DNA from: Deltaproteobacteria bacterium
Lineage (GTDB): Bacteria; Myxococcota_A; Polyangia; Haliangiales; SHYZ01
NCBI GenBank assembly: GCA_016210055.1
Contig: JACQUZ010000155.1
Coordinates: 5,633-69,632, forward strand
Reading direction: 5' to 3'
Length of the DNA: 64,000 bases
Positions 1,082 through 13,165 of the stretch are shown here, piece after piece; the stretch's first letter is position 1; every line of letters begins with the position of its first letter. Position numbers and translations under genes: made by a program. The notes below the pieces were generated by a model. That model was not told the origin of the DNA. It made no database searches and saw nothing but the letters and a program-made list of their open reading frames with translations.

Positions 1082-1738
1082 TTAGTTGATCGCGTTGCCA
1101 ATGGCAGCGCCCACGCAGGCTCCGCAAACCACGGCTCCGGCAAAACTAGGGAACGTGGCGCAGGCACCAAGCGTCACCCACCAGGGGCAGTTCGGGATTT
1201 TCGAGGCAAATGACGAGCAGATCTGACCATCCTCGGTCGCTGTGCACATGTTCGTACCTAGATCGGCCAGGTTGCTGCCCAGGACCGGGTCGTTCAGGAC
1301 CGCCTGCAGGACCTCCATCTCGCGCGTGAGCTCGCGGGGGAACTCGCCGCTTAGCACCTCGACGCCAGCCTCGCTGAACCTGACCCGGACCTTCTCGACG
1401 GTCCCGACGATAACCGCCAGCTCTTGTCCTTCACGCCGCACCACGAGGGGTGCGTCCGAGCTATCGAGCTGGATAGAGGACTCCTGGGTCCCGGCCGACT
1501 CCACACCACGCACGGTCCCGATCTCGACGCCCGAGAAATCGCGCAAGTGGATAAACGTCTCGGCTCCCGCGTAGATTTCATAGCTCCCAATCCCCAGGGC
1601 CCTCGGCTTCTCACCAGAAGCCACGATGACCGACTGCTCTGTGGACGCGCCTTCCGTGGAAGGGGCCTGGTCGGAGGCACATCCCCCGAATGCGAACGCA
1701 GCGACCAACATCGAAGAGAGCGAGAGTAGCTTTTTCAT
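1082..1738 (-). CDS. Hypothetical lipoprotein with a Cys-rich, Gly/Ala-rich hydrophobic C-terminal tail
   Basis: The start is moved to the internal ATG (1738), giving MKKLLSLSSMLVAAFAFGGCASDQ, a signal peptide with a lipobox-like FGGC. The C-terminus is CTATEDGQICSSFASKIPNCPWWVTLGACATFPSFAGAVVCGACVGAAIGNAIN. I recognise no family. Confidence 0.6.
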   Translation of the reverse strand: MKKLLSLSSMLVAAFAFGGCASDQAPSTEGASTEQSVIVASGEKPRALGIGSYEIYAGAETFIHLRDFSGVEIGTVRGVESAGTQESSIQLDSSDAPLVVRREGQELAVIVGTVEKVRVRFSEAGVEVLSGEFPRELTREMEVLQAVLNDPVLGSNLADLGTNMCTATEDGQICSSFASKIPNCPWWVTLGACATFPSFAGAVVCGACVGAAIGNAIN

Positions 1739-1795
1739 GGCGGTCCTTTTCTTTTTTCTAATGAGTTGTCCCAATTGTCCGTGATTAGCCTAAAG

Positions 1796-2189: not shown

Positions 2190-3290
2190 TCAAATCCACC
2201 GCAGGTCCAGGTAAGGCCGCGCGGTGGCGGCGGCTCCAAGCGGTGGGGCTTCCGCCCACTCGAGGAGATCCACGTCGGAGACGAACGACTGGAAGGGAAT
2301 CCCTTTCATCGCCGGGCGCAATGGGTCATCCCCGGCAAAGCCCACGTGGATCATGTGGACCCCGGTCCCGAGGAGGTCGTCGTGGAGGACGGCCAGGAGG
2401 TCCCGCAGGATTGCTGGATCCCCGCTCGGTACAGCCACGCGCGTCGTGGTCACTGTGCGGAAGGATTCGCCAGGCCGTGGAAGGGGAGCCGAGCGCCGCA
2501 GCCAAAGGCGGGCTGCGCGGTGGGCCAAGCGAATCGCGTGTCCCCTGGGGGAGAAGCCGAGGACGGTGGTTCGGCGCACGGCGCCCGCGTCCCAGGCCCC
2601 CATGACCCCGACGAGCTCCGAACCCACGTGAGCGAGATAGAAATCCCCAACCGAGAACCCTGGAAGACGCCGGACGTCGTCCGAGAGATCCTCGTCGGTG
2701 CAAGCGGGCGCGAAGAGCCGCCCCTCGTAGGCACGGGCCATTAGCTTGGCCATGGCGGGGAGATCCTCCACTTGGGCACGCCGCACCTTGCAGCGCCTCG
2801 GCTCTCCCAGAGGGCGGAGCACGAGGACGTTCGCTGCTTCGAAGGCACACAACCTGCGGACTCGGATGCTCGGAATGGCCAACCGATCCATCACTTGCCT
2901 GGCCGACGTGTTCCCCCTCTTCACCAGGCAGAAGCCGAGGGCAAGCGACCGCGGATCCACGGCGATGGCATGGGCGGCAGCGCGTTCTGTGAACCTGTGC
3001 CCGCGCTCGCTAGGAAGTACCCGCGCGTCCCCGCCGTAATAGAACGCACCCCACCCGGCGCCTGTATAGCCTCGTGCCCACCCGAAAAGAAAATAGGCGC
3101 AAAGCTCATCGTCGCGAAATCCGCCGAGGTACAGGTGCCGATCAAACACGGCGTCGGGCCAGCCAAAGAAGCATGGGGCCCGATCGAAGAAGAAAGTGAA
3201 GTCCGCTCGGATCGGGCACGCGCGGTTGATCTCGCGCATTCTGCCCTCGAGGCTCCTATCAAGCAGCCTGATTGCGAGCGCATCCCTCAT
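2190..3290 (-). CDS. Putative GNAT-fold acyltransferase (two-lobed), function unknown
   Basis: 366-aa ORF whose ATG overlaps the stop of the upstream DUF3419 gene (3287..3290). It carries weak GNAT-like segments (FYLAHVGSELVGVMGAWD; PSERGHRFTERAAAHAI). The family assignment is tentative. Confidence 0.55.
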   Translation of the reverse strand: MRDALAIRLLDRSLEGRMREINRACPIRADFTFFFDRAPCFFGWPDAVFDRHLYLGGFRDDELCAYFLFGWARGYTGAGWGAFYYGGDARVLPSERGHRFTERAAAHAIAVDPRSLALGFCLVKRGNTSARQVMDRLAIPSIRVRRLCAFEAANVLVLRPLGEPRRCKVRRAQVEDLPAMAKLMARAYEGRLFAPACTDEDLSDDVRRLPGFSVGDFYLAHVGSELVGVMGAWDAGAVRRTTVLGFSPRGHAIRLAHRAARLWLRRSAPLPRPGESFRTVTTTRVAVPSGDPAILRDLLAVLHDDLLGTGVHMIHVGFAGDDPLRPAMKGIPFQSFVSDVDLLEWAEAPPLGAAATARPYLDLRWI

Positions 3291-4384
3291 GGGATACGAC
3301 GCCGCGCCACGCTGGCGGGCACCACCTGGTAAAAGGGGAAGCGGTCTCTTTGGGTCAGCTCACGACCAAGGGCATCATCCACGCACACCGTCTCGCGGAG
3401 GCGCTCGGGTAAAGGACGGTTCACGTGGATGTAACGCCACGCGACCCGCCCCCCGTCGGGCATGCGGGTGGCCACGGCGTCCAAGAGGTCACCCCACTGC
3501 TCCTGAGAAAGCCAGTCGGGAAGATTCGAAAGCTGGACCTTTTGGAATGTCCCGACGGGCTCGCGCTTGAGGCACTGGCCGATATCCTCGTGCCTGAGGT
3601 CCAAGCAACCAGGCCGCGCGCGGAGGGTCTCGACCCCCGCACGAGAAAGATAGAATGGGCACGCGTCGGCGCTCGTCAGGCGACCGAGGAGGGACAGCGC
3701 CAAGAGTGGGTTGTCGGAAGCCAAGTGCCCCGTGCACAGCTTGCGAAACTGCTCGAAGAACTGATCGCCGAGTGGGACCTGCGAGTCGCGGTACTTAAGC
3801 GACCTCGGGTCCATCCCACGCTTGCGAAACAGGCGAGGATGGAACACCAGGCGGAAGACGCGCCGCAAGGATGGACGGGCAATCTCGCGGTCGAAGTGAG
3901 CGCACTGCTCCTCGAGGGTGGAGGCACGAAAAAGGCCCTCGAGCCTGCGCGACCCCACGAGCGGGCCAAAAGCCCTTCGCACGAGGCCCATGTAGCGCTC
4001 GTACCGGCCCGCCCAAATGACCCCTTTCTTGACAGCACTCTCGTGGCGCGTCCAGAACGCGCGTGCATCGTCGGACACGAGCGGCAGGACCTGGCGAAGC
4101 TGCTTCTTCCTCGCGGCGCCGCTGCATGGCACGTATCCGAGAAACCGCAGGGCATCCTCACGCAAGAGCGCCCGCACCGCCGCGAGCTTGAGCTCGACGA
4201 GAAAGAGCTGGGGCTTGCTCGTGTCCACGGCGACCACCCGGCTCGCCCCGAGCGCGAGGAGCGAAAGGGGCATCTCCCCGGCGCTGGCCACGCACAGGAT
4301 GTGGTCGCGGTCGCACAGCTTGAGCGCCCGTGCCTCGGTGCGCTCGTCCTCCTGGGACAGTCCAAAGTTGTAAAGGGCGCTCAC
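3287..4384 (-). CDS. DUF3419 / BtaA-like protein (family of S-adenosylmethionine:diacylglycerol 3-amino-3-carboxypropyl transferase)
   Basis: 365 aa. The N-terminal block LYNFGLSQEDERTEARALKL...ILCVASAGEMPLSLLALGASRVVAVDTSKPQLFLVELKLAAVRAL matches the conserved DUF3419/BtaA N-terminus (a SAM-binding Rossmann-like motif followed by the LELKLAA helix). There are 4-nt overlaps with both neighbouring genes. Confidence 0.8.
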   Translation of the reverse strand: MSALYNFGLSQEDERTEARALKLCDRDHILCVASAGEMPLSLLALGASRVVAVDTSKPQLFLVELKLAAVRALLREDALRFLGYVPCSGAARKKQLRQVLPLVSDDARAFWTRHESAVKKGVIWAGRYERYMGLVRRAFGPLVGSRRLEGLFRASTLEEQCAHFDREIARPSLRRVFRLVFHPRLFRKRGMDPRSLKYRDSQVPLGDQFFEQFRKLCTGHLASDNPLLALSLLGRLTSADACPFYLSRAGVETLRARPGCLDLRHEDIGQCLKREPVGTFQKVQLSNLPDWLSQEQWGDLLDAVATRMPDGGRVAWRYIHVNRPLPERLRETVCVDDALGRELTQRDRFPFYQVVPASVARRRIP

Positions 4385-7300
4385 TCCTCCTTGGATACCA
4401 TGGAAGCCGCGGAGGCCCTAAACCCGCCCCCGCCCAGCGCGGCGTAGAACCCAAGCCGCTCCCCGAGCGCATCGAGGGCTGCCACGCTTTGCGGATCGAT
4501 GTCGCCGACGAGCCTCAGGTCACGCGTCTCCTCGGGCGCGAGGCCGAGCAGCATGACCTCGGCGGCGCAGCAGAACGTGCTCCCCTCTGGAGTGTGAGAG
4601 CTCACGACGAAATCCGGCGCAGAAGGAACCGCGACGGTGCCAGCAAAAGGAACTACCCGCACGTTCGGCATGCCTTGTACCAGCGGCGACACGGCGCTCG
4701 GGACCGAGACGTCGGCAATAAGGACCGGGTGCCCTGTGGCCAGGTGGTGTGGAAACACCAGGGGCTCATTGGTGCTCGTGGCCACGGTCACCACGTGGCA
4801 GGCGCGAAGCAGGTGCAAGTCCGTGCCCACCTGGACGTCAATGGCGCCGCCTGCCCCTCTGCCCACCTCGGAGAGCACCTGGTCTCTCAAGGCCGCGAGC
4901 CGCCGCTGGTCGCGGCCGAGGAGCACCACGCGGCCAGGCCGCGGCAAGCCCGTGACGAGCTTGTGCACGAGCGCAGACCCGATGTTCCCCGTGGCACCGA
5001 CGACGCCCAGCACCGCGTCGCCCACGGCCACGCCCATGCCCGCGCATGCGCCTTGCAGGCGACGGGCCGCTACCGCGACGGTGAAGCTGTTCCCCGACGT
5101 AATTCGCACCCCATCTGGTGGAAGCAACGCCAACCCATCGCGCGCGAGGATGCTCGTGTACCCGCCCAGCGCCACGTGACCGCAGCCGAGAGACGCAGCC
5201 AGGTTGACCGCGTCCTGGAGCCGCTCGGTCTCTAGGTAGCGGTAGTTGCGGCGGAGCCTTTCCTCCAAGAACGCAGCGTCGGCTGGAATAACGATGGATA
5301 CAAACCAGAGTCGCCCGCCGAACAGGTTTCGCGAGAAACCCAGGATGGGCTTGAGCTCGAGGAACGTGGTGAGCCTTTGGAATAGCGCCCGCAAGGCGCC
5401 CCGCCCCAGGGCGGCGAGGGACGGCTCGGCCATGGCGATTTCCCGCTCCGGCAGGGCGAAGTGCGAAATGAAGGCCACTCGCGCGGCGCCCTCGGCAGGT
5501 CGCTCCACCCGCCCCGAGAACCTTGGAAGCGCCTGCGCTGGGAAACGATCTTGCTCGGCGAGATCCTCGCGCGGAAGAATGCCGCGGAGCAAGACGCCCA
5601 GGTCACGGCGAACGAGCACATCGCAAAGTCCCCGGAGTGCGTTCACAAGCTGATCCTGCCCATGGCTATCGAGGAATGCGCTCGGTTGAATTCGAAGGGT
5701 GCTCGGCGCCGACAAGGTCGGCAGGATACGGACGTGATGCTCGTGAAGGAGGAACGCGGAAGCCACGGCCCCCAGGAGGTCATGCGTCTCGAGGGCCCGA
5801 AGAACCAGCGAGTCCTCGGTAGCCTTCGGTGCAAGCTTGATCCCGAGAAGAAGCCCCCGACCCGAGACCCGCTCGATCACGTCAGGGTATTCGTGCGCCA
5901 GGCCGACGAGCGCAGCCTTTAGCGCCTCGCCACGTTCCCTCGCCCTCCTGGGAATGTCCTCCCTTTCGATGACATCTAGCACCCGGCGCGCCACGCGGCA
6001 GGAAAACGGGTCGCCCCCAAAGGTCGACGAGTAGTGCTCGTCAAAGCGATCCAAGTAGCGGCTCCGCTCCACGAGCAGCGCCGAGATCTTGGCCGCACCT
6101 CCCCCGAGCGCCTTGCCAAAAAGATAGTAATGCCCACGCACCCCCTCGGAGGCGAGGAAGGTCCCCACCCGGCCGAGGCCGCTCTGGATCTCATCCAAAA
6201 TGAGCGGGAACTCGTACCCGCCGAGCCTTGCGAGCAGGCGAGGATCGATCTCGGTCACCCCGCCCTCCCCCTGGATGGGTTCGGCGATCGCCGCCACGAC
6301 ATTCACGAAGGAGAGCGTTCCCAAGGCCGCGCCATGACCACGTGGAACGAGGATGGGCACGCAGGCCGTGTACTCGCAAACAAGGGCGTCGAGGTCAATC
6401 TCCCCGCTCCTCGGCACGAACCGGGTCTCGATCCCCATGAGGCTCTCGTAGGGCGCCCGCTTGCGCGCATTTCCCAAGACGGCCCTTGCTCCCAAGGAAT
6501 GGCCATGAAACGCCCCTTCCAAGGCAATGAGCGCCAGCCTCGACGCCCCCAGGATCCGCTCGGCCTCCGCCAGGCAGTGCGAGACGAGCTCGGGCTGGGC
6601 GCCCCCAAAACGCCGCTTCTGGTCTCGGGCGATCCTCCGCCAGCGCTCGTTTCGCTCGAGCGCCGCGTGGGAGATGGCCATCTCCACCGCCTCCGACCCG
6701 GTTGAACCGAAACGCACGACGTAGGCTTGTCCGGTGGTCTCCGCGACCTTCAGGGCGAGCTTCCTGGCCAGCTCGCCCTGCTCGGGACGCGCAGCCCCTT
6801 GGTCCCAGAAAAGAACCGAGTCGTCTTCCAGGGCCGCGGATGCCGCTTCTCGCACGGCCTCATGCGAATGGCCGAGCAAGTTGCCACCGAAGCCACCGAC
6901 GGCGTCGAGGACCTCGATCGGACGACTACCGTCGAGAAAAACGAGGCGATCCCCCTTTCCCGACACGTAGTGCTTGTCCATGCGCGTCGAGCGAAGAAGC
7001 GCCCCACGGCGTGGGCTCGCGAGCCGCACGTGGGTGGGCTGGAAGAAATGCTCTTCAGGCAAGAGCACGATGCCTGCACGCTTGGAGTAGGGCCCGCACA
7101 GGTTCGCGAGCAATGGGCCATAACGCCTATCAATCTCACTTCGGACGACCGACCCTTTTCGCGTGCGGGGAACCTGGTCGCGAACGCAGGCGAACCGCTT
7201 GATCGTGAGGTGGCGAAACTCGAATTCCTCGAGGGAATCCAGGAAATGCTCGTGCCTGGCCTCGAGCTGGCCTTGCACTGATGAAAGGATCGCCCGGGCG

Positions 7301-8856
7301 GTCACGAGGCATCCCGCCTCGGGCGCATGCTCGCCCAAGAGAAACACCAGGGCCGCAAGCCCTGGCTCCTCGCGCAGCGGGAAGCACTCCACATGAGCGA
7401 CGGGCGGCATGAGCCCCCCGTACAGCTCCTCCAAGCGGCCTCGCGATACCTTGACGCCAAAGCTGTCCTTGACGAAGTCCCCCTTCGCCCGGGCAAAGTA
7501 CTTGAGCCCCGCCTTCGACTTCACGACGAGATCGCCCGTATCCATGAATCCACCGGGGCCCGGGAAGTTCCCGCCCTGAGCGGCGCTATCTTCGTGGGCA
7601 AGATAGCCGAGCGAGGCGAATGGAGATCGGGCCCACAAGCGAAACACGCCCTCACCTTGGGAGGGTTCTGGCGCGAGTCCCAGCTCCACCCCGGGAAGCG
7701 GCGACCCGAGACTCCCAGGCTCGTGGGGACCTCCGACAAGCGTGCAGGCGATCATCTGAGTCTCGGTAGTGCCAAGCGCGTTTTCCAAGGGGAGGCCGAG
7801 GGCGACGTGGAGCCGCTTGGCCAAGCTTCCGTCGTAGGGCGCACCATTCGAGACAAGGCACTTGAGATCCTGGAAGCAGGTCTCCTTGAGCTGGGGGAAG
7901 ACCCGCGCGAGCTCGAGGAGCGCGCGATACGTGGCAGGACCAGCGAGCACGTGCTCTGGCCGCATCTCGAGAAGCAGGTCACGCACCCGACCAGGATGCT
8001 CGATCACTCTCTCGGGAGTCAGGAGGCACAAGGGCTTGCGCGTCCACAGCGCATTCCAGAGCGCGCGCACGCCCATGGAATGACCGAGGAGGAGGCTCAG
8101 ACCACGGTTTCCGAGTCGATCTTCACCGAGAAGCCCGGCCGCCTCCCAGCTCGCCGCGCTGCGAAGAAACGCCCCTTGTGCATAGCGAACGAGCCTCGCG
8201 CGGCCGGACGTCCCCGAGGTCGTCAGGAGCAATGCCTCCGTCTCGGCCGAAGTCGCTCCCATGAGGGTGGCAATGAGCGGATCGCTCGCGGGCGGGCTCT
8301 CCTCGTGCGTCTCGACAGCCCGTGCTCCCAGGTTCAAGTCCCCCTGCAAGCAAAGGGCAGGGATGCCGAGCGTGCGAGCCATGGCACGCAGGCGCCCAAG
8401 AAGCGCAAGATCTGCCTCGTGCTTCACGAGGTCTTCCACCTCGTGAGCATTCCAAAGAAGGAGCTTGCTTCCCGACGCCTTGAGCCAGGCTTCGAGGCGG
8501 TCGCACTCGATGTACATGGGAAGGAATACCCGCACCCCCCACGCAGAGAGCGCCACGAGCGACAAGGCGACGAGCGTTTCACTCGTGCGTGGCAGCCTGA
8601 GGACGCACACCGTGTCTCCCGGCTTCACTCCGCGGCGCGAAAGATCGGCAATGAGGCCAAGCGTCGCGTGCCGAAGTGCACGCAGGGATACACGCACGCC
8701 CCCCTCGTCAATGGTGCCCATGATGACGGGCTCAGCATCTGACCCGCCATCCGCGCGACCGAACAAAAGGTCGGCGAAATTCTGGAACCTGAGCAAGCAA
8801 GGCGCCGCGCCACCGGGCGACCGGATCACTTCGAACACCTCTAGAGAACGCGGCAT
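4381..8856 (-). CDS. Three-domain fusion enzyme: AMP-dependent acyl ligase + class-III (PLP) aminotransferase + acyl-ACP-reductase (AAR)-like NAD(P) domain
   Basis: 1491 aa. N-terminal third: AMP-binding core motif LLLTTSGTSGRARLV and a later GDLV...KG adenylation-type segment. Middle: class-III aminotransferase motifs (GSTGSEAVEMAI, LILDEIQSGLGRVG, FGKALGGGAAKIS with the PLP Lys). C-terminal about 340 aa align by eye with cyanobacterial acyl-ACP reductase: VAFISHF vs FGLIGHL, ALGGYTSIL vs ALGGFTSII, ITSGNSFTVAV vs FTTGNTHTAYV, VVGATGNIGSALV vs VVGATGDIGSAV, FCCAAEVMLL vs FACFAEAMLL (catalytic Cys). No phosphopantetheine carrier motif was noticed. Confidence 0.85.
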   Translation of the reverse strand: MPRSLEVFEVIRSPGGAAPCLLRFQNFADLLFGRADGGSDAEPVIMGTIDEGGVRVSLRALRHATLGLIADLSRRGVKPGDTVCVLRLPRTSETLVALSLVALSAWGVRVFLPMYIECDRLEAWLKASGSKLLLWNAHEVEDLVKHEADLALLGRLRAMARTLGIPALCLQGDLNLGARAVETHEESPPASDPLIATLMGATSAETEALLLTTSGTSGRARLVRYAQGAFLRSAASWEAAGLLGEDRLGNRGLSLLLGHSMGVRALWNALWTRKPLCLLTPERVIEHPGRVRDLLLEMRPEHVLAGPATYRALLELARVFPQLKETCFQDLKCLVSNGAPYDGSLAKRLHVALGLPLENALGTTETQMIACTLVGGPHEPGSLGSPLPGVELGLAPEPSQGEGVFRLWARSPFASLGYLAHEDSAAQGGNFPGPGGFMDTGDLVVKSKAGLKYFARAKGDFVKDSFGVKVSRGRLEELYGGLMPPVAHVECFPLREEPGLAALVFLLGEHAPEAGCLVTARAILSSVQGQLEARHEHFLDSLEEFEFRHLTIKRFACVRDQVPRTRKGSVVRSEIDRRYGPLLANLCGPYSKRAGIVLLPEEHFFQPTHVRLASPRRGALLRSTRMDKHYVSGKGDRLVFLDGSRPIEVLDAVGGFGGNLLGHSHEAVREAASAALEDDSVLFWDQGAARPEQGELARKLALKVAETTGQAYVVRFGSTGSEAVEMAISHAALERNERWRRIARDQKRRFGGAQPELVSHCLAEAERILGASRLALIALEGAFHGHSLGARAVLGNARKRAPYESLMGIETRFVPRSGEIDLDALVCEYTACVPILVPRGHGAALGTLSFVNVVAAIAEPIQGEGGVTEIDPRLLARLGGYEFPLILDEIQSGLGRVGTFLASEGVRGHYYLFGKALGGGAAKISALLVERSRYLDRFDEHYSSTFGGDPFSCRVARRVLDVIEREDIPRRARERGEALKAALVGLAHEYPDVIERVSGRGLLLGIKLAPKATEDSLVLRALETHDLLGAVASAFLLHEHHVRILPTLSAPSTLRIQPSAFLDSHGQDQLVNALRGLCDVLVRRDLGVLLRGILPREDLAEQDRFPAQALPRFSGRVERPAEGAARVAFISHFALPEREIAMAEPSLAALGRGALRALFQRLTTFLELKPILGFSRNLFGGRLWFVSIVIPADAAFLEERLRRNYRYLETERLQDAVNLAASLGCGHVALGGYTSILARDGLALLPPDGVRITSGNSFTVAVAARRLQGACAGMGVAVGDAVLGVVGATGNIGSALVHKLVTGLPRPGRVVLLGRDQRRLAALRDQVLSEVGRGAGGAIDVQVGTDLHLLRACHVVTVATSTNEPLVFPHHLATGHPVLIADVSVPSAVSPLVQGMPNVRVVPFAGTVAVPSAPDFVVSSHTPEGSTFCCAAEVMLLGLAPEETRDLRLVGDIDPQSVAALDALGERLGFYAALGGGGFRASAASMVSKEE

Positions 8857-8955
8857 GAAGACGCTTTTGTGAGGTTATCACGCCTAGAATGCCCCATGGG
8901 AGGCATCACTTGGCGAAGGCACAAAAACGGCATGAAGATTGCTGGCTAGACTTGC

Positions 8956-9612
8956 ATGCCCACAACCGACCGCGCCTTCATTCCGGCCGCCCGATTCCAT
9001 TGGCTCACGCCGGTCTATGATTCACTTTGCCGCTTGCTCGGGCTGGGCGCCGCGCTGCGGGACTTCGAGCTCGAACTCCTCGAGTCCGTCGAGGCATCTG
9101 ACATTCTCGAGGTGGGTTGCGGTACGGGTGAGCTCCTCCTTCGAGTAGCCCGGCGGTTTCCGTCAGCCCGAGTGGTCGGTATCGACCCCGACCCGCGCGC
9201 ACTCCGGATTGCGGCCAAGAAGCTTCCTCCCGAGCGCGACATCCGATTGGTCAAGGGGCGTGCCGAGTCCCTCGAGTTCCCAGACCATTCATTCGACCTG
9301 GTGCTGTCGAGCCTCATGCTCCACCACCTCGACACCGAGAGTAAGATCGCCGCTCTGAGGGAATGGAAGCGGGTCTTGAGGCCTGGCGGTCAAATCGTCC
9401 TGGTTGACCTTGGGGAGCCGCGCTCCCTGACTACCAAGGTTCTTCTCTACCCGCTGCGGTTCAACCTCTTCGAAAAACAGGCCGACAACTTGAGGGGTAA
9501 GATACCGTCGTTCATCCAGCAGGTGGGCCTCGCGCTTTCCGAGGCGGCCGTATTCCGCTCTGCCGTGGTGGCCTACCGCGCTTGGCTGCCGGGGACGCCG
9601 CCGAGAGCGTAG
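8956..9612 (+). CDS. Class I SAM-dependent methyltransferase (UbiE/COQ5-like)
   Basis: 218 aa. SAM motif I is ILEVGCGTGELLL, followed by an acidic post-I residue (VVGIDPD) and a downstream LRPGGQIVLVD motif. It is transcribed divergently from the 4381..8856 operon across a roughly 100-bp gap. Confidence 0.85.
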   Translation: MPTTDRAFIPAARFHWLTPVYDSLCRLLGLGAALRDFELELLESVEASDILEVGCGTGELLLRVARRFPSARVVGIDPDPRALRIAAKKLPPERDIRLVKGRAESLEFPDHSFDLVLSSLMLHHLDTESKIAALREWKRVLRPGGQIVLVDLGEPRSLTTKVLLYPLRFNLFEKQADNLRGKIPSFIQQVGLALSEAAVFRSAVVAYRAWLPGTPPRA

Positions 9613-9716: not shown

Positions 9717-9752
9717 GCGACCCCAGCGGGATTCGAACCCGCGTCACCAACG
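9717..9752. repeat. 36-nt direct repeat, copy 2 (inside the intact tRNA-Glu)
   Basis: Identical to 9637..9672. Confidence 0.9.
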
Positions 9753-9791
9753 TGAAAGGCTGGTGTCCTAGGCCGACTGGACGATGGGGTC
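9718..9791 (-). tRNA. tRNA-Glu (anticodon UUC)
   Basis: Manual cloverleaf on the minus strand: GACCCCA TC GTCC AGTCGGCCTA GGAC A CCAGC CTTTCAC GTTGG TGAC GCGGG TTCGAAT CCCGC TGGGGTC G. 74 nt, CCA not encoded. It closely resembles bacterial tRNA-Glu. Confidence 0.9.
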
Positions 9792-9823
9792 TTAAGTGAT
9801 TTCTTCTACCAAACTTTTCGCCG

Positions 9824-9896
9824 TGAGCCCAGCAGGGATCGAACCTGCGACCAACGGGTTAAAAGCCCGCTGCTCTACCGGCTGAGCTATGGGCTC
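9824..9896 (-). tRNA. tRNA-Lys (anticodon UUU)
   Basis: Manual cloverleaf on the minus strand: GAGCCCA TA GCTC AGCCGGTA GAGC A GCGGG CTTTTAA CCCGT TGGTC GCAGG TTCGATC CCTGC TGGGCTC A. 73 nt. Confidence 0.9.
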
Positions 9897-10006: not shown

Positions 10007-10354
10007 GTGATTGACCAACGCCGTGCGACGCGCGTGGCCTCAGATCTTCCGGCCCGGTACCAGACGAGCGAAATTCTCCTCGAAGGGTGGGCCGGCAACT
10101 TGAGTCAGGGGGGGATGTTCTTCGTCGGCCCAGCCATCGACAGGGGGGTCGGGGACGTTCGCGTGGAGATAGCACTCCCGGAGTTCAGCCCGCTCATGTT
10201 GGCTGGTGAAGTCCGGTGGGTCGAAGAAGGACCCGTTCACTTCGGCATGGGGATTCGCTTCGTGAACGTTGCCCGATTCGAGCGTCAGCTCCTCGCGAAC
10301 TACTTGCTCCGCCGGACGTACCACCACTCGTCGTCGGGCTCTTCGCCCGCTTGA
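10007..10354 (+). CDS. PilZ domain protein (c-di-GMP binding type)
   Basis: 115 aa with a GTG start. Contains the bipartite PilZ motifs RxxxR (QRRATR) and (D/N)xSxxG (GNLSQGG). Confidence 0.8.
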   Translation: MIDQRRATRVASDLPARYQTSEILLEGWAGNLSQGGMFFVGPAIDRGVGDVRVEIALPEFSPLMLAGEVRWVEEGPVHFGMGIRFVNVARFERQLLANYLLRRTYHHSSSGSSPA

Positions 10355-10740: not shown

Positions 10741-10925
10741 GGGCTTCCCCTGCCCGACTCGTGATGAGGTGTCGGTCAACCTAGCACCTCAAAGGGAGGG
10801 GGTCGCACCGGCCATGGTGAGCACGCCCCGGTGTGCCTGAAGTGGCCGTTCGATCCCGGCCTTTGGTTCCCTGGTCCAGTTTTGGTTCGAGTCGTCGCCC
10901 ACACGGCCGAGGCGGGGGACTTATG
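10741..10925 (+). ncRNA. ssrS: Candidate 6S RNA (ssrS)
   Basis: A roughly 240-nt gap with no convincing coding signal lies between zapA and the 5-formyltetrahydrofolate cyclo-ligase gene. That is the conserved zapA-ssrS-ygfA arrangement known from many bacteria. The 5' end (gggcttcccctgcccgactcg) and 3' end (cgagtcg...ggccgaggcgggggac) are partly complementary, as expected for a 6S closing stem. Boundaries are approximate and no covariance model was run. Confidence 0.4.
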
Positions 10926-10982
10926 AGTCGAGTCGATCCTTATCGTCGCACATTAGTTCCGATCGGCGCCTTTTGCGCTACC

Positions 10983-11606
10983 ATGAGCCTATCCGTCCTT
11001 TCGATGCGCGCTTTAAAAGATGAGCTCCGCCGCGAGATGCGAATCCGGCGTCTCGATGTCTCGATGGAGCAATCGAGGAAGTGCGCAGAAATGGCGGCCA
11101 GGCACATCGCCAGGATTCCAGGGTTCCGCGAAGCCGGTGTCGTCGCCGTGTATGCTCCCGTGCGCGGAGAACTCGACACCGCTCCGCTCGTCAGTGAGCT
11201 CCGCTCCCGCGGCAAGACGGTGTGCTATCCCTGCATGGCGCCAAGCCACCGCCTGCTCGCCTTCCACGCTGTTGATGATGAAACCCGGCTGGTGCCAAGC
11301 CGGCTCGGAATCCCTGAACCTACCGAGGACATGCCCGTCGTCCCATCCGATCGGATTGAATGGATTATCGTCCCCGGACTCGCGTTTGATGCGCGAGGAG
11401 GAAGGCTTGGGTGGGGACGCGCTTACTACGACACCACTCTTGCGGCCAAGCCGCTGGCCCTGCGCGTCGGGTTGGCCCACGGCTTCCAAATCGTCCACTC
11501 CGTCCCGGAAACGGCAGACGACGAACGGATGGACGCCATCGTCACGGAGCTGGGCGCTCGGCTCACGCTCGCCAGAACCCAGCTCAACATGCGGAGGAAA
11601 CGTTGA
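10983..11606 (+). CDS. 5-formyltetrahydrofolate cyclo-ligase
   Basis: Family motifs are present: AVYAPVRGELD, GIPEP, IIVPGLAFDARGGRLGWGRAYYD. The start is moved from 10833 to the internal ATG 10983 (MSLSVLSMRALKDELRR). The longer form would cover the 6S candidate and adds an Arg/Pro-rich non-homologous extension. Confidence 0.8.
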   Translation: MSLSVLSMRALKDELRREMRIRRLDVSMEQSRKCAEMAARHIARIPGFREAGVVAVYAPVRGELDTAPLVSELRSRGKTVCYPCMAPSHRLLAFHAVDDETRLVPSRLGIPEPTEDMPVVPSDRIEWIIVPGLAFDARGGRLGWGRAYYDTTLAAKPLALRVGLAHGFQIVHSVPETADDERMDAIVTELGARLTLARTQLNMRRKR

Positions 11607-13165
11607 TCATTATCTACTTGCTTCTCGGCGTGCTGGCCGGCGCCCTCCTTTCGTACCTGGTCATCCCCAGGGTTTGGGGGAAGGCGGGCGCGGATGCGGC
11701 TGACGGCGCAGAGGCCGAGGGACAGAAGATCCTCGACGCCGCCCGCGCCGAGGCAGAAGCCATCCGGAAAGACGCCTTGGTCAAGGGGAAGGAGCTCGCG
11801 TTTGGGCTCAGGGCGGAGGTCGAAGAGGAAATCCGAGGGAGAAGAACCGATCTCGCCAAGCAGGAAGAGGCCCTGTCGGTTCGGGAAGAACAGGCCGAAA
11901 AGCGGGCCCGAGACGCGGGGCGCCGAGAGGAGGACCTGCAAAAGAAAGAAAAGACTATCGCGGCTCGCGAGCAGGCGGCAGAGGCCATGGCACGTCAAGC
12001 TGAGCAAGCAGTCGCCGAGGCCAAGGCACGACTCGAGAAGGTTGCCGGAATGACGGCGGCGGAGGCACGGCAGAAGCTGGCCGACCAGATGATTGACGAG
12101 GCCCGCAAGCTCGCCGCGGCAGAGGTCAAGCGAATCGAGACCACGGCCCAAGAGGAAGCGGCGGAAAAAGCAAAAAAGGTCATCGGCACTGCGATCCAGC
12201 GCTTTGCGAGCGAGTACGTGGCGGAGCGAACCGTCGCCGTCGTCCCCCTGCCCTCCGATGACATGAAGGGGCGACTGATCGGTCGCGAAGGCCGAAACGT
12301 ACGAGCCCTCGAGGCTGCCACGGGTATCGACCTCATTATCGATGACACCCCCGAGGCGATCACGATCTCCTGCTTCAACCCGATTCGGCGCGAGATCGCC
12401 CGCCTTGCAATCGGCCGCTTGGTCGCGGATGGACGAATCCACCCGACTCGAATCGAAGAGGTCGTCGCCAAGTGCGAGGAAGAGGTCCAGAACCAGTGCA
12501 AGGAGGCCGGCGAGCAGGCGGTCTTTGACCTTGGCCTGCACCGCGTGCATCCGGAGCTCATCAAGCTCCTGGGTGGGCTCAAGTACCGCTCGAGCTACGC
12601 GCAAAACCTCCTCGCGCACAGCATCGAGGTCGGCTTTCTCGCCGGGATCATGGCGGCAGAGCTGGGGCTCAACATCAAGCAGGCACGGCGTGCGGGCCTT
12701 TTCCACGACATTGGCAAGGCGGTCGACCACCAGCAGGAAGGCTCCCACGCGGTCGTGGGCGCGCAGCTGCTCAAGAAATACGGCGAGTCGCCGAGGATTT
12801 GCCAGGCGGTGGCCGCGCACCACGACGACGTGCCCCAGGAGGGCGTGCTCGATCACGTCGTGGACGCGGCCAATCGCCTAAGTGGCCAGCGGCCTGGCGC
12901 ACGAAGGGAGACCCTCGAGTCCTATATCAAGCGCCTGCACGATCTTGAAGCGCTCGCAAGGGGCTACAAGGGGGTCGACAAGGCATTCGCCATCCAGGCA
13001 GGCCGGGAGGTGCGGGTCGTCGTCGAAAATGGGCAGATCAATGACGAGCAGGCCATCCTCCTATCGAAGGACATCGCGAGAAAGATTGAGACTGAAATGT
13101 CCTATCCAGGCCAGGTGCGCGTTTGCGTGATACGCGAGACCAGGGCCACGGACTACGCACGATAG
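11603..13165 (+). CDS. rny: Ribonuclease Y
   Basis: N-terminal TM helix (IIIYLLLGVLAGALLSYLVI), a long Glu/Ala/Lys coiled coil, a KH domain (GRLIGREGRNVRALE) and an HD domain (LFHDIGKAVDH). I propose a TTG start at 11603, preceded by GGAGGA and overlapping the 5-FCL stop (TTGA). This gives about 520 aa, the typical RNase Y length. Confidence 0.9.
   Translation: MIIIYLLLGVLAGALLSYLVIPRVWGKAGADAADGAEAEGQKILDAARAEAEAIRKDALVKGKELAFGLRAEVEEEIRGRRTDLAKQEEALSVREEQAEKRARDAGRREEDLQKKEKTIAAREQAAEAMARQAEQAVAEAKARLEKVAGMTAAEARQKLADQMIDEARKLAAAEVKRIETTAQEEAAEKAKKVIGTAIQRFASEYVAERTVAVVPLPSDDMKGRLIGREGRNVRALEAATGIDLIIDDTPEAITISCFNPIRREIARLAIGRLVADGRIHPTRIEEVVAKCEEEVQNQCKEAGEQAVFDLGLHRVHPELIKLLGGLKYRSSYAQNLLAHSIEVGFLAGIMAAELGLNIKQARRAGLFHDIGKAVDHQQEGSHAVVGAQLLKKYGESPRICQAVAAHHDDVPQEGVLDHVVDAANRLSGQRPGARRETLESYIKRLHDLEALARGYKGVDKAFAIQAGREVRVVVENGQINDEQAILLSKDIARKIETEMSYPGQVRVCVIRETRATDYAR

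Follow-up and report, generated by a model that had tools for sequence, protein, structure and literature searches.

The question raised by this locus is what three adjoining genes, encoding a multidomain fusion enzyme, a DUF3419 protein and a GNAT-like protein, make together. The original prediction, drawn from the window (the whole 64,000-nucleotide stretch analysed here), was that they form a pathway for an amino-lipid or head group other than the betaine lipid DGTS.

Organization and conservation of the three-gene unit

Three open reading frames lie on the minus strand: gene 1 (4381-8856, 1491 aa), encoding a tri-domain enzyme with ANL adenylation, class-III omega-transaminase (TA) and AAR-like thioester reductase (TR) domains; gene 2 (3287-4384, 365 aa), encoding a divergent DUF3419 (BtaA-superfamily) protein and putative SAM-dependent transferase; and gene 3 (2190-3290, 366 aa), encoding a predicted tandem-GNAT N-acyltransferase with an N-myristoyltransferase (NMT)-like fold. 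As predicted, the genes overlap by 4 nt each, and the reading frames and junction reads agree exactly. The gene 1 stop codon and the GTG start of gene 2 share GTGA at 4381-4384 (...GAGGAGTGAGC), and the gene 2 stop codon and the gene 3 start share ATGA at 3287-3290 (...CCCATGAGG), both on the minus strand. The GTG start is supported by the gene 2 orthologues, which begin at the same 'MxxLYNFG' position. The 4-nt gene 1/gene 2 overlap also occurs in loci L004, L006, L007, L008 and L009, and the ATGA overlap is kept in L002, L004, L007, L008 and L009. Dozens of independent contigs carry full-length orthologues at 35-60% identity, so the three reading frames are genuine genes and have not arisen by chance.

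Upstream of gene 1 lies a divergent intergenic region of 99 nt (8857-8955), which presumably bears the promoter; a promoter scan found no sigma-70-like site in it, and it gave no Rfam riboswitch match. The neighbours in the window are housekeeping-type genes (NMO, lipoprotein, tRNA-Glu, tRNA-Lys, PilZ, 5-FTHF cyclo-ligase, RNase Y, TyrRS and RibF). No glycerolipid gene was present among the annotated neighbours of genes 1-3, in agreement with the original prediction.

Conservation of the gene neighbourhood, which had been proposed as a check, was borne out. The full cassette was present in 15/15 loci sampled from the gene 2 (DUF3419) or gene 3 (GNAT) side, and when tri-domain loci were sampled from gene 1, a DUF3419 gene adjoined in 20/22 and a GNAT gene in 15/16. 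Nearly all sampled cassette loci come from Myxococcota metagenome-assembled genomes (MAGs). In an all-against-all comparison of 16 loci the flanks were unrelated to one another and nothing else recurred. Genes 1-3 form a conserved, mostly translationally coupled unit. The methyltransferase at 8956, suggested earlier as a possible partner, was not found at any other cassette locus examined and is not part of the module.

Gene 1 encodes a tri-domain enzyme with intact active sites

The ANL (AMP-binding) domain of gene 1 spans aa 1 to about 590 (7087-8856, minus strand; PF00501, E 2.5e-24, match aa 51-419). Its core motifs A3, A5, A7, A8 and A10 are present and all invariant, namely the P-loop TTSGTSG (aa 212-218, nt 8203-8223), GTTET (aa 362), TGD (aa 440-442), R456..D464..K469, and K567 in PRTRKG (nt 7150-7170). 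The best NCBIfam match is a FadD7-family fatty-acid-CoA ligase (E 3e-16), and among solved structures in the PDB malonyl-CoA and oxalate-CoA ligases come nearest (E 3e-9 to 3e-6). By these matches the domain is very divergent, and the fatty chain length is not predictable from the nearest structures. At L024, the ANL domain is a separate 584-aa protein (46% identity) whose gene is located after the GNAT gene, so the domain may serve the GNAT rather than the reductase.

A class-III aminotransferase domain follows at aa 630 to about 1070 (5647-6969, minus strand; PF00202, E 1e-44, match aa 630-1048). It carries DEIQSG (aa 888) and the invariant PLP lysine K915 in FGKALGGG (nt 6097-6120), and its best NCBIfam matches are PigE and putrescine aminotransferase. 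The AAR-like reductase domain (aa about 1122-1470; 4447-5493, minus strand) matches PDB 6jzu (E 2e-13), TIGR04058 (E 5e-14) and the N-terminal region of PigE (E 7e-16). Two motifs are invariant in it: GATGNIG (aa 1287-1293, nt 4978-4998), and FCCAAE (nt 4558-4575) with Cys1430, which aligns with Cys294 of AAR (6jzu). The catalytic motifs of the whole protein (P-loop, TGD, K567, K915, GATGNIG and Cys1430) are intact and invariant in 8 aligned orthologues. No carrier (PP-binding) domain was found in gene 1 at E<=0.01 (E<=10 for the terminal segments), and the flanks of the 16 compared loci share no small open reading frame. The prediction that this enzyme forms a fatty amine or aldehyde appears credible, as its TA-TR half has the PtTamH domain order and an AAR-type reductase.

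The same domains bear on another reading, which we consider unlikely though worth weighing, that the operon makes no lipid but a small polar compound, such as a compatible solute or a chelator of the polyamine, opine or nicotianamine type. By this route the ANL domain would take a short, dicarboxylic or amino acid, the TR and TA domains would turn it into a di- or polyamine precursor, to which the DUF3419 enzyme would attach an aminocarboxypropyl arm, and acetylation would fall to the GNAT. The solved malonyl-CoA and oxalate-CoA ligase relatives are in keeping with such substrates, and the transaminase domain also resembles putrescine and acetylornithine aminotransferases. However, the reductase has its matches in AAR and PigE, whose substrates are aliphatic thioesters (a medium-chain acyl thioester for PigE), and not in amino-acid semialdehyde enzymes, and TamH, the closest architecture, yields fatty amines.

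Gene 2 is a predicted SAM-binding DUF3419 protein distinct from BtaA

Gene 2 contains a full-length DUF3419 domain (PF11899, E 1.8e-52, profile positions 10-378 of 385), with E12-D13, motif I VASAGEM (G36, nt 4271-4291), motif II VVAVD (D54, nt 4223-4237) and LSNLPDW at aa 285-291. The SAM residues, to which the original prediction had drawn attention, are retained: neither the motif-I glycine G36 nor the motif-II aspartate D54 varies among 40 close homologues or in comparison with canonical BtaA-type and other DUF3419 clades. Gene 2 is only 24% identical to a canonical BtaA (from the btaA-btaB pair of Sinorhizobium sp. RAC02) and scores 179 bits on the Pfam model against 382 bits for the latter, and by these measures it is not a BtaA orthologue. 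The earlier description of gene 2 as BtaA-like therefore holds for its full-length domain and SAM motifs and fails where orthology is concerned.

Ordinary DGTS synthesis would have gene 2 acting as BtaA on diacylglycerol and the 8956 methyltransferase as BtaB, with the other two genes as unrelated neighbours. The full-length DUF3419 domain would suit this, as would the divergent 218-aa UbiE-like methyltransferase, which is BtaB-sized and 29% identical to a BtaB-like protein. Yet the methyltransferase is missing from every other locus, gene 2 has under half the family-model score of BtaA, it is translationally coupled to the GNAT gene and fused with GNAT in relatives, and its linkage to the tri-domain enzyme is conserved. 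We regard this full scenario as highly improbable. A canonical DGTS role for the operon is unlikely, and the claim that its product is something other than DGTS is upheld, as gene 2 is not a BtaA orthologue and the methyltransferase is absent elsewhere.

In the AlphaFold2 (AF2) model of gene 2 (pLDDT 94), about 200 aa of helical insertion interrupt the Rossmann core; its Foldseek matches are weak and limited to class-I methyltransferase folds, and we found no solved DUF3419 structure. The gene 2 sequence does not separate aminocarboxypropyl from methyl transfer. It is conceivable, though quite improbable, that the enzyme performs methyl transfer or other SAM chemistry, giving an N-methylated and/or N-acylated long-chain amine that lacks an amino-acid head group. 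This would accord with the class-I methyltransferase core, with Foldseek matches that are all methyltransferases, with the low identity to BtaA, and with the finding that the activity of aminocarboxypropyl transferases is not predictable from sequence (PMC11869996). Against it, gene 2 and canonical BtaA have in common the family-wide invariant residues E12-D13, LS[N/D]xxDW, R313, D347 and Y352. Acylation of a methylamine would also suit the tandem GNAT, with its large acceptor domain and its fusion to DUF3419 in relatives, less well than acylation of an alpha-amine that has just been installed. To our knowledge, BtaA is the only characterised member of the large DUF3419 family, and it is an aminocarboxypropyl transferase; this too argues for aminocarboxypropyl transfer.

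Gene 3 is a predicted tandem GNAT

Gene 3 has no match of its own in Pfam (E<=10), in NCBIfam or, by sequence, in the PDB. Its homologues match PF00583 (weakly) and PF13527, in the N-terminal half. The AF2 model (pLDDT 94.3, pTM 0.92) gave Foldseek matches to NMT1 (E 2e-12, TM 0.6) and to the tandem GNAT MAB_4324, both with probability 1.0 and spanning TM 0.55-0.6. On the weak PF00583 matches of the homologues, the model and the tandem-GNAT matches, we call gene 3 a GNAT, which is what had been expected of the third gene; as modelled, it is a tandem GNAT and comes nearest in fold to N-myristoyltransferase. The structural alignments with NMT have about 10% identity, so the likeness is at the level of fold. 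The N-terminal GNAT half contains a predicted acyl-CoA loop, GDARVLPSERGHRF (aa 87-100, nt 2991-3032), with an invariant R96-G97; the gene 3 family has 351 representatives at E<=1e-30. Membership of the NMT family proper was rejected, given the lack of a Pfam match at E<=10 and the roughly 10% structural identity. Assignment as an OlsB/GlsB aminolipid N-acyltransferase was likewise not supported, with no PF13444 (Acetyltransf_5) or other Pfam match at E<=10.

Relatives and their neighbourhoods

In some relatives (P0153 and P0247) DUF3419 and the tandem GNAT are single polypeptides, and in one Chloroflexota MAG the two occur without the tri-domain fusion enzyme, which indicates that they are the tighter unit. 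Among distant relatives, an MMPL-GNAT fusion adjoins a phosphatidylserine-decarboxylase homologue. In another case an MMPL gene overlaps that of a DUF3419-GNAT fusion, and the divergent strand carries FabH-like and NAD_binding_4 reductase genes. The cultured Mycobacterium riyadhense has a weakly related cluster with, in a row, DUF3419, a Haem_oxygenas_2-family iron redox enzyme, GNAT and MmpL. The MmpL links derive from distant relatives and not from the close family. SAM synthetase genes adjoin the cassette in L002 and L024.

The neighbourhoods also speak to the polar-metabolite reading. The products of genes 1-3 have no predicted transmembrane segments, the 16 compared loci of the close family share no exporter, and an amino-acid permease lies near the cassette in L004 and an asparagine synthase near that in L002, all of which would suit a soluble product. 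Known small-molecule aminocarboxypropyl transferases make metallophores or, with a GNAT, modify microcin C (MccD/MccE) (PMC10491745). On the other side, MMPL, FabH and a phosphatidylserine-decarboxylase homologue occur in linkage with distant DUF3419-GNAT modules, and the closest GNAT fold is NMT.

A proposed pathway to an amino-acid lipid

Genes 1-3 constitute a real, conserved and uncharacterised pathway. We propose, with a little less than even confidence, that it is a self-contained three-enzyme route in uncultured Myxococcota from a carboxylic acid, SAM and acyl-CoA to an amphiphile. The signs that the product may be a lipid are indirect: gene 1 is related to AAR, PigE and TamH, gene 3 has an NMT-like fold, and distant relatives have MmpL neighbours. 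In the first step, as domain homology and the intact active sites suggest, the ANL domain would adenylate an aliphatic acid, probably of medium or long chain, and convert it to a thioester. Since gene 1 lacks a carrier domain, the thioester may form on CoA, on a cellular carrier ACP or directly on Cys1430. The AAR-like domain, with NAD(P)H, would then reduce a Cys1430 thioester to the aldehyde, and the transaminase domain would convert this to a primary amine. By analogy, the whole step would follow TamA + TamH logic in one polypeptide. There is precedent in that PtTamH and TamA convert a C12 acid to the C12 amine in vitro and PtTamH converts a C12 thioester to dodecylamine (PMC9594044). However, PtTamH rejected acyl-CoA and required the fused carrier ACP of TamA (PMC9594044), which counts against this step because neither gene 1 nor any flank has a carrier.

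In the second step, going by its family, the DUF3419 enzyme would use SAM to alkylate the amine, or a hydroxyl on the same chain; the group transferred would most likely be 3-amino-3-carboxypropyl, as with BtaA, with release of methylthioadenosine. In the third, the tandem GNAT, as its fold suggests, would move an acyl group from acyl-CoA, possibly the product of the ANL domain, to a free amine of the intermediate. Such a pathway would end in a zwitterionic product with neither glycerol nor phosphorus, such as a lipid of the N-alkyl, N'-acyl-2,4-diaminobutyrate type. DUF3419 and the tandem GNAT would represent the conserved head-group core, and the tri-domain enzyme the tail-supplying accessory of this clade.

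A broader generalization is possible but rather doubtful: that a widespread head-group machine, often paired with MmpL, has DUF3419 and the tandem GNAT as its core and makes a new class of glycerol-free, phosphorus-free amino-acid lipids from SAM, and that in Myxococcota a unique carrier-less, single-chain fatty acid to fatty amine enzyme feeds it. Its range would take in Myxococcota, one Chloroflexota MAG and, in a distantly related form, Mycobacterium.

If the proposal is true, it would provide the first non-DGTS function for the DUF3419 family, and would mean that Myxococcota abundant in soil and groundwater but uncultured contain a new membrane or surface lipid that lacks phosphorus. Gene 1 would also be a natural enzyme that takes a carboxylic acid to the primary amine in a single polypeptide and needs no carrier protein, attractive for biocatalysis, which now uses carboxylic acid reductase + transaminase or TamA + TamH cascades. 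The distantly related DUF3419-GNAT-MmpL cluster in a cultured mycobacterium may offer an experimental entry point. If the product is instead a small polar metabolite, the module would still be a new biosynthetic route, of narrower interest.

Comparison with known systems

OlsB/OlsA-type aminolipid synthesis, like the proposed route, arrives at a phosphorus-free lipid through N-acylation of an amino-acid head group. PF13444 is common to its N-acyltransferases (PMC11631085), whereas gene 3 has no match to it and the operon has no O-acyltransferase. With BtaA/BtaB, gene 2 has in common the DUF3419 fold, SAM motifs I and II and the family-invariant residues; it differs in its 24% identity, the lack of a conserved BtaB and of diacylglycerol logic, and its coupling or fusion to a tandem GNAT. 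Gene 3 resembles N-myristoyltransferase and bacterial tandem GNATs (MAB_4324, 5kf2) in its two-GNAT pseudo-dimer with the acyl-CoA site in the N-terminal half, but it presumably acylates a small molecule or a lipid and not a protein N-terminus, and the likeness amounts to about 10% identity and a TM of about 0.6.

In the mollusc bur-ox pathway, an A-T-R NRPS reduces an adenylated carboxylate and a homoserine unit from SAM is then put onto the reduced product (PMC11869996). The operon would likewise join adenylated-carboxylate reduction to aminocarboxypropyl transfer from SAM; the bur-ox transferase, however, is of the isonocardicin-synthase family and not DUF3419, its reductase is an NRPS R domain with a carrier, and neither a transaminase nor a GNAT takes part. 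The cyanobacterial acyl-ACP reductase (AAR; PDB 6jzu) has the fold, nucleotide loop and acyl-enzyme residue (Cys294 or its equivalent) in common with gene 1. AAR is a stand-alone enzyme that makes alkanes together with aldehyde-deformylating oxygenase, whereas the gene 1 aldehyde would go to the fused transaminase.

PigE of the MAP branch of prodigiosin synthesis (PDB 4ppm) combines thioester reductase and transaminase functions (PMC8341465), and among NCBIfam models it fits these two parts of gene 1 best. It has the reversed order (TR then TA) and no ANL domain, and gene 1 scores 187 bits on its model, far under the equivalog cutoff of 850 bits. Tambjamine or prodiginine bipyrrole clusters are not present, the window flanks being housekeeping and those of the other loci unrelated, and TA-TR-only relatives at 32-38% identity are without DUF3419 and tandem GNAT partners. 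PtTamA and PtTamH, which make the tail of tambjamine YP1 in Pseudoalteromonas tunicata, likewise combine ANL fatty-acid activation, AAR-type reduction and omega-transamination to a primary amine, and PtTamH and gene 1 have in common the TA-then-TR order, a linker of about 50 aa, GxxGxxG and the catalytic Cys. Gene 1 differs in having all three domains in one 1491-aa chain, without the fused carrier ACP of TamA, and its partners are DUF3419 and a tandem GNAT rather than a condensing enzyme. The operon follows known enzyme logic in a new arrangement.

Organization of the operon and its surroundings

The cassette lies on the minus strand of the window and comprises gene 1, an adenylation-transaminase-reductase fusion (4381-8856, 1491 aa), gene 2, a DUF3419 protein with a GTG start (3287-4384, 365 aa), and gene 3, a tandem GNAT (2190-3290, 366 aa). 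The sequence at the two junctions reads as a GTGA overlap and an ATGA overlap, confirming the original prediction of an operon of three genes joined by 4-nt overlaps, and overlaps of the same kind occur in most orthologous loci. No riboswitch or promoter was found upstream of gene 1, and none of the three proteins has transmembrane segments.

Upstream of gene 1 and divergent from it, an ORF at 8956-9612 (+) encodes a UbiE/CpaM-like class-I methyltransferase of 218 aa with 29% identity to a BtaB-like protein. It had been considered a possible partner of the three genes; however, it occurs in this genome only and is missing from every other locus, and for that reason we rejected it as an unlikely member of the pathway. 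Downstream of gene 3, a predicted lipoprotein of 230 aa (1082-1774, minus strand) has a lipobox-like motif (FGGC) and a Cys-rich hydrophobic C-terminus; it matches no family and is not kept beside the cassette in other loci.

Genes for tRNA-Glu(TTC) and tRNA-Lys(TTT) (9717-9791 and 9823-9896, both minus strand) separate the methyltransferase from a PilZ-domain ORF (10007-10354). Farther along, a full-length match to 6S RNA (RF00013) at 10744-10922 (+) scores 30.2 bits (E 0.005), below the Rfam gathering score of 46.4. It lies directly upstream of 5-formyltetrahydrofolate cyclo-ligase, whose ORF spans 10833-11606 and whose Pfam match begins at aa 62. As 6S RNA upstream of this enzyme is the classical ssrS-ygfA arrangement, the match probably represents a genuine, divergent 6S RNA, and the true ORF start probably lies farther downstream than annotated.

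Conservation of the cassette

We then examined the gene neighborhood in relatives, the check proposed with the original prediction, and the cassette proved to be conserved. Sampled from the GNAT and DUF3419 sides, the order fusion, DUF3419, GNAT was found in 15/15 long-enough loci, the one exception being an Anaerolineaceae-binned MAG (L018) with the DUF3419-GNAT pair alone; at another locus, L002, the pair and the fusion gene are divergently oriented. In metagenomes, DUF3419 lies directly downstream of the tri-domain enzyme in 20 of the 22 loci with downstream sequence, and the tandem GNAT is present in 15 of the 16 tri-domain loci with wide enough flanks, the order being fusion-DUF3419-GNAT or GNAT-fusion-DUF3419. 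The exceptions are L040, without a GNAT, and L049 and L051, which belong to a divergent tri-domain clade (about 37% identity) and have neither DUF3419 nor GNAT neighbors, nor any neighbor with an informative match. TamH-like transaminase-reductase proteins without the adenylation domain (32-38% identity) never stand beside DUF3419 or a tandem GNAT; those of L057, L060, L062, L063 and L065 (32-36% identity) are on large contigs in unrelated contexts.

An all-against-all comparison of flanking ORFs from 16 loci recovered the three core genes with their antisense shadow ORFs and nothing else recurrent; no carrier protein, no transporter and no further conserved gene emerged. Directly after the tandem GNAT, L004 has a B12-binding radical-SAM enzyme (11117-12493) and L008 an FtsX/ABC (MacB-like) pair, both lineage-specific additions. 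All taxonomically labeled loci are MAGs (Myxococcales, Polyangiaceae, Polyangia and 'Deltaproteobacteria'), and the GTDB representatives with matches to the family patterns included no cultured species. One MAG, NC_groundwater_1658, has two copies on different contigs (L012 and L015). The L017 copy of the tri-domain gene is broken into two overlapping ORFs; a pseudogene, a frameshift or an error of assembly could explain this.

Gene 3 encodes a tandem GNAT

Direct sequence searches with gene 3 gave no match in Pfam, NCBIfam or PDB, and it was therefore approached through a structure model built with 21 homologues. The AF2 model (pLDDT 94.3) has two GNAT folds in tandem, and its best Foldseek matches are to N-myristoyltransferases with bound myristoyl-CoA (E about 2e-12, TM 0.6) and to MAB_4324, a bacterial tandem GNAT. 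The acyl-CoA loop is in the N-terminal half, with R96-G97 invariant; the weak PF00583 and PF13527 matches of orthologues also fall in this half. The family is sizeable: an exhaustive profile search collected 351 representatives with E<=1e-30, a number that rises to 1788 with E<=1e-10; a word-index search understated it, returning 25 matches against at least 351 representatives.

Gene 2 is a divergent DUF3419 protein

In gene 2 the DUF3419 domain is full-length (E 2e-52). For comparison we used a genuine btaA-btaB pair on pBSY16_1 of Sinorhizobium sp. RAC02, in which a 421-aa DUF3419 protein is followed by a 219-aa methyltransferase. This BtaA scores 382 bits against PF11899 versus 179 bits for gene 2, and the two proteins are 24% identical, which by sequence places gene 2 in a clade distinct from canonical BtaA. 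After this comparison a canonical DGTS operon was rejected, and DGTS synthesis is essentially excluded.

The residues expected for SAM binding are present in gene 2: motif-I G36 and motif-II D54 are invariant across all DUF3419 clades compared, as are the N-terminal E12-D13, LS(N/D)xxDW, R313, D347 and Y352. In the AF2 model (pLDDT 94), a Rossmann core is interrupted by a helical insertion of ~200 aa. Its Foldseek matches are weak (best TM-score 0.33) and are all class-I SAM methyltransferases; since these are the only matches, no solved homologue of DUF3419 was found. Use of SAM by gene 2 is well supported. [quoted passage not shown] None of the literature mentioning DUF3419 that we found concerns a system like this cassette.

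Distant relatives point to a possible lipid context

Fusion proteins of DUF3419 with the tandem GNAT also exist, P0153 and P0247. The gene of P0247 (762 aa; L026/L027) overlaps a downstream MMPL transporter gene by 4 nt, and on the divergent strand lie FabH-like, AurF-like, class-II aaRS-like and NAD_binding_4 thioester-reductase genes with an 87-aa ORF, possibly a carrier. P0204 (L025) is an MMPL-GNAT fusion adjoined by a phosphatidylserine-decarboxylase homologue. In L024, the ANL is a separate 584-aa protein (46% identity) between the GNAT and a SAM synthetase, and a SAM synthetase is also near the cassette in L002. Plasmid p1 of the cultured Mycobacterium riyadhense DSM 45176 (413165-418826) has DUF3419 (326 aa), Haem_oxygenas_2 (an iron redox enzyme), GNAT (325 aa) and MmpL/RND genes in a row. 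A profile of the wider tandem-GNAT family, built from those of the best 150 representative-search hits that were full-length (127 sequences of 300-420 aa), matches this GNAT in the N-terminal half only (E 1e-12). We found no characterization of this cluster in the literature, and it may serve as an experimental handle. These loci suggest that DUF3419 and GNAT together make up a module building the head groups of amphiphiles that MmpL-type transporters export, and that the enzymes supplying the tails are interchangeable; the MmpL and lipid links stem from distant relatives and are not proof for the window locus.

Other DUF3419 clades (22-27% identity) form small clusters of their own: iron redox enzyme, DUF3419, AspH-like protein and GNAT in Xylella fastidiosa pXF-CO33; MBL hydrolase, 'CoF synthetase', DUF3419 and a 368-aa unknown in Rhizobium pMK-2 and Shinella oryzae; and PEP-utilizing enzyme, DUF3419, unknowns and an AMP-binding protein in Roseinatronobacter. 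The DUF3419 family clearly serves more than one function. A wider triad of ANL, DUF3419 and tandem GNAT in the last three genera was not supported: between the ~368-439-aa proteins after DUF3419 and the tandem GNAT, neither BLASTP nor hhalign detected any similarity, and none was detected for the Xylella GNAT either.

Gene 1 and the proposed pathway

Gene 1 combines AMP-binding (aa 51-419) and Aminotran_3 (aa 630-1048) Pfam domains with a C-terminal ~350 aa that match cyanobacterial long-chain acyl-ACP reductase (AAR; PDB 6jzu, E 2e-13; TIGR04058) and also the reductase half of PigE. Eight aligned orthologues are invariant in the TTSGTSG P-loop, GTTE, TGD, the A10 lysine K567, the PLP lysine K915, GATGNIG and Cys1430, which aligns to the acyl-enzyme Cys294 of AAR. 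Domain searches detected no carrier domain. The adenylation domain is highly divergent; its top NCBIfam match is a FadD7-family fatty-acid-CoA ligase (E 3e-16), and among solved structures malonyl-CoA and oxalate-CoA ligases come closest.

In PtTamH, a ~50-aa linker joins a transaminase to an AAR-like thioester reductase; together with TamA, an ANL-ACP protein, this fusion converts a C12 fatty acid to the C12 amine, and TamH refuses acyl-CoA as substrate (PMC9594044). PigE catalyzes the same reactions and has its two domains in the opposite order (PMC8341465). From its domains, its motifs and this precedent, gene 1 is best read as a putative TamA plus TamH in a single chain, minus the ACP. The analysis shows the gene structure, the intact active sites, the folds and the co-occurrence of the genes; substrate class, the group transferred, reaction order and product we infer. 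On the most likely route, of three steps, gene 1 would take an acid through acyl-AMP, thioester and aldehyde to a primary amine, gene 2 would then add a SAM-derived group, and gene 3 would later carry out N-acylation. Instead of, or besides, feeding Cys1430, the ANL may provide the GNAT with acyl-CoA. The rival to such an acylated amine is a polar product resembling a polyamine or an opine.

Each enzyme type of the cassette is already known. Three features appear to be undescribed: the carrier-less tri-domain fusion, for which a literature search found no description, the DUF3419 clade of gene 2, and the obligate pairing of this clade with a tandem GNAT. The cassette offers bacterial lipid and SAM enzymology a solid lead that can be tested. 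Gene 1 is like PtTamH in its domain order (transaminase, then reductase) and ~50-aa linker, whereas it lacks the ACP of TamA and holds all three of its domains in one chain.
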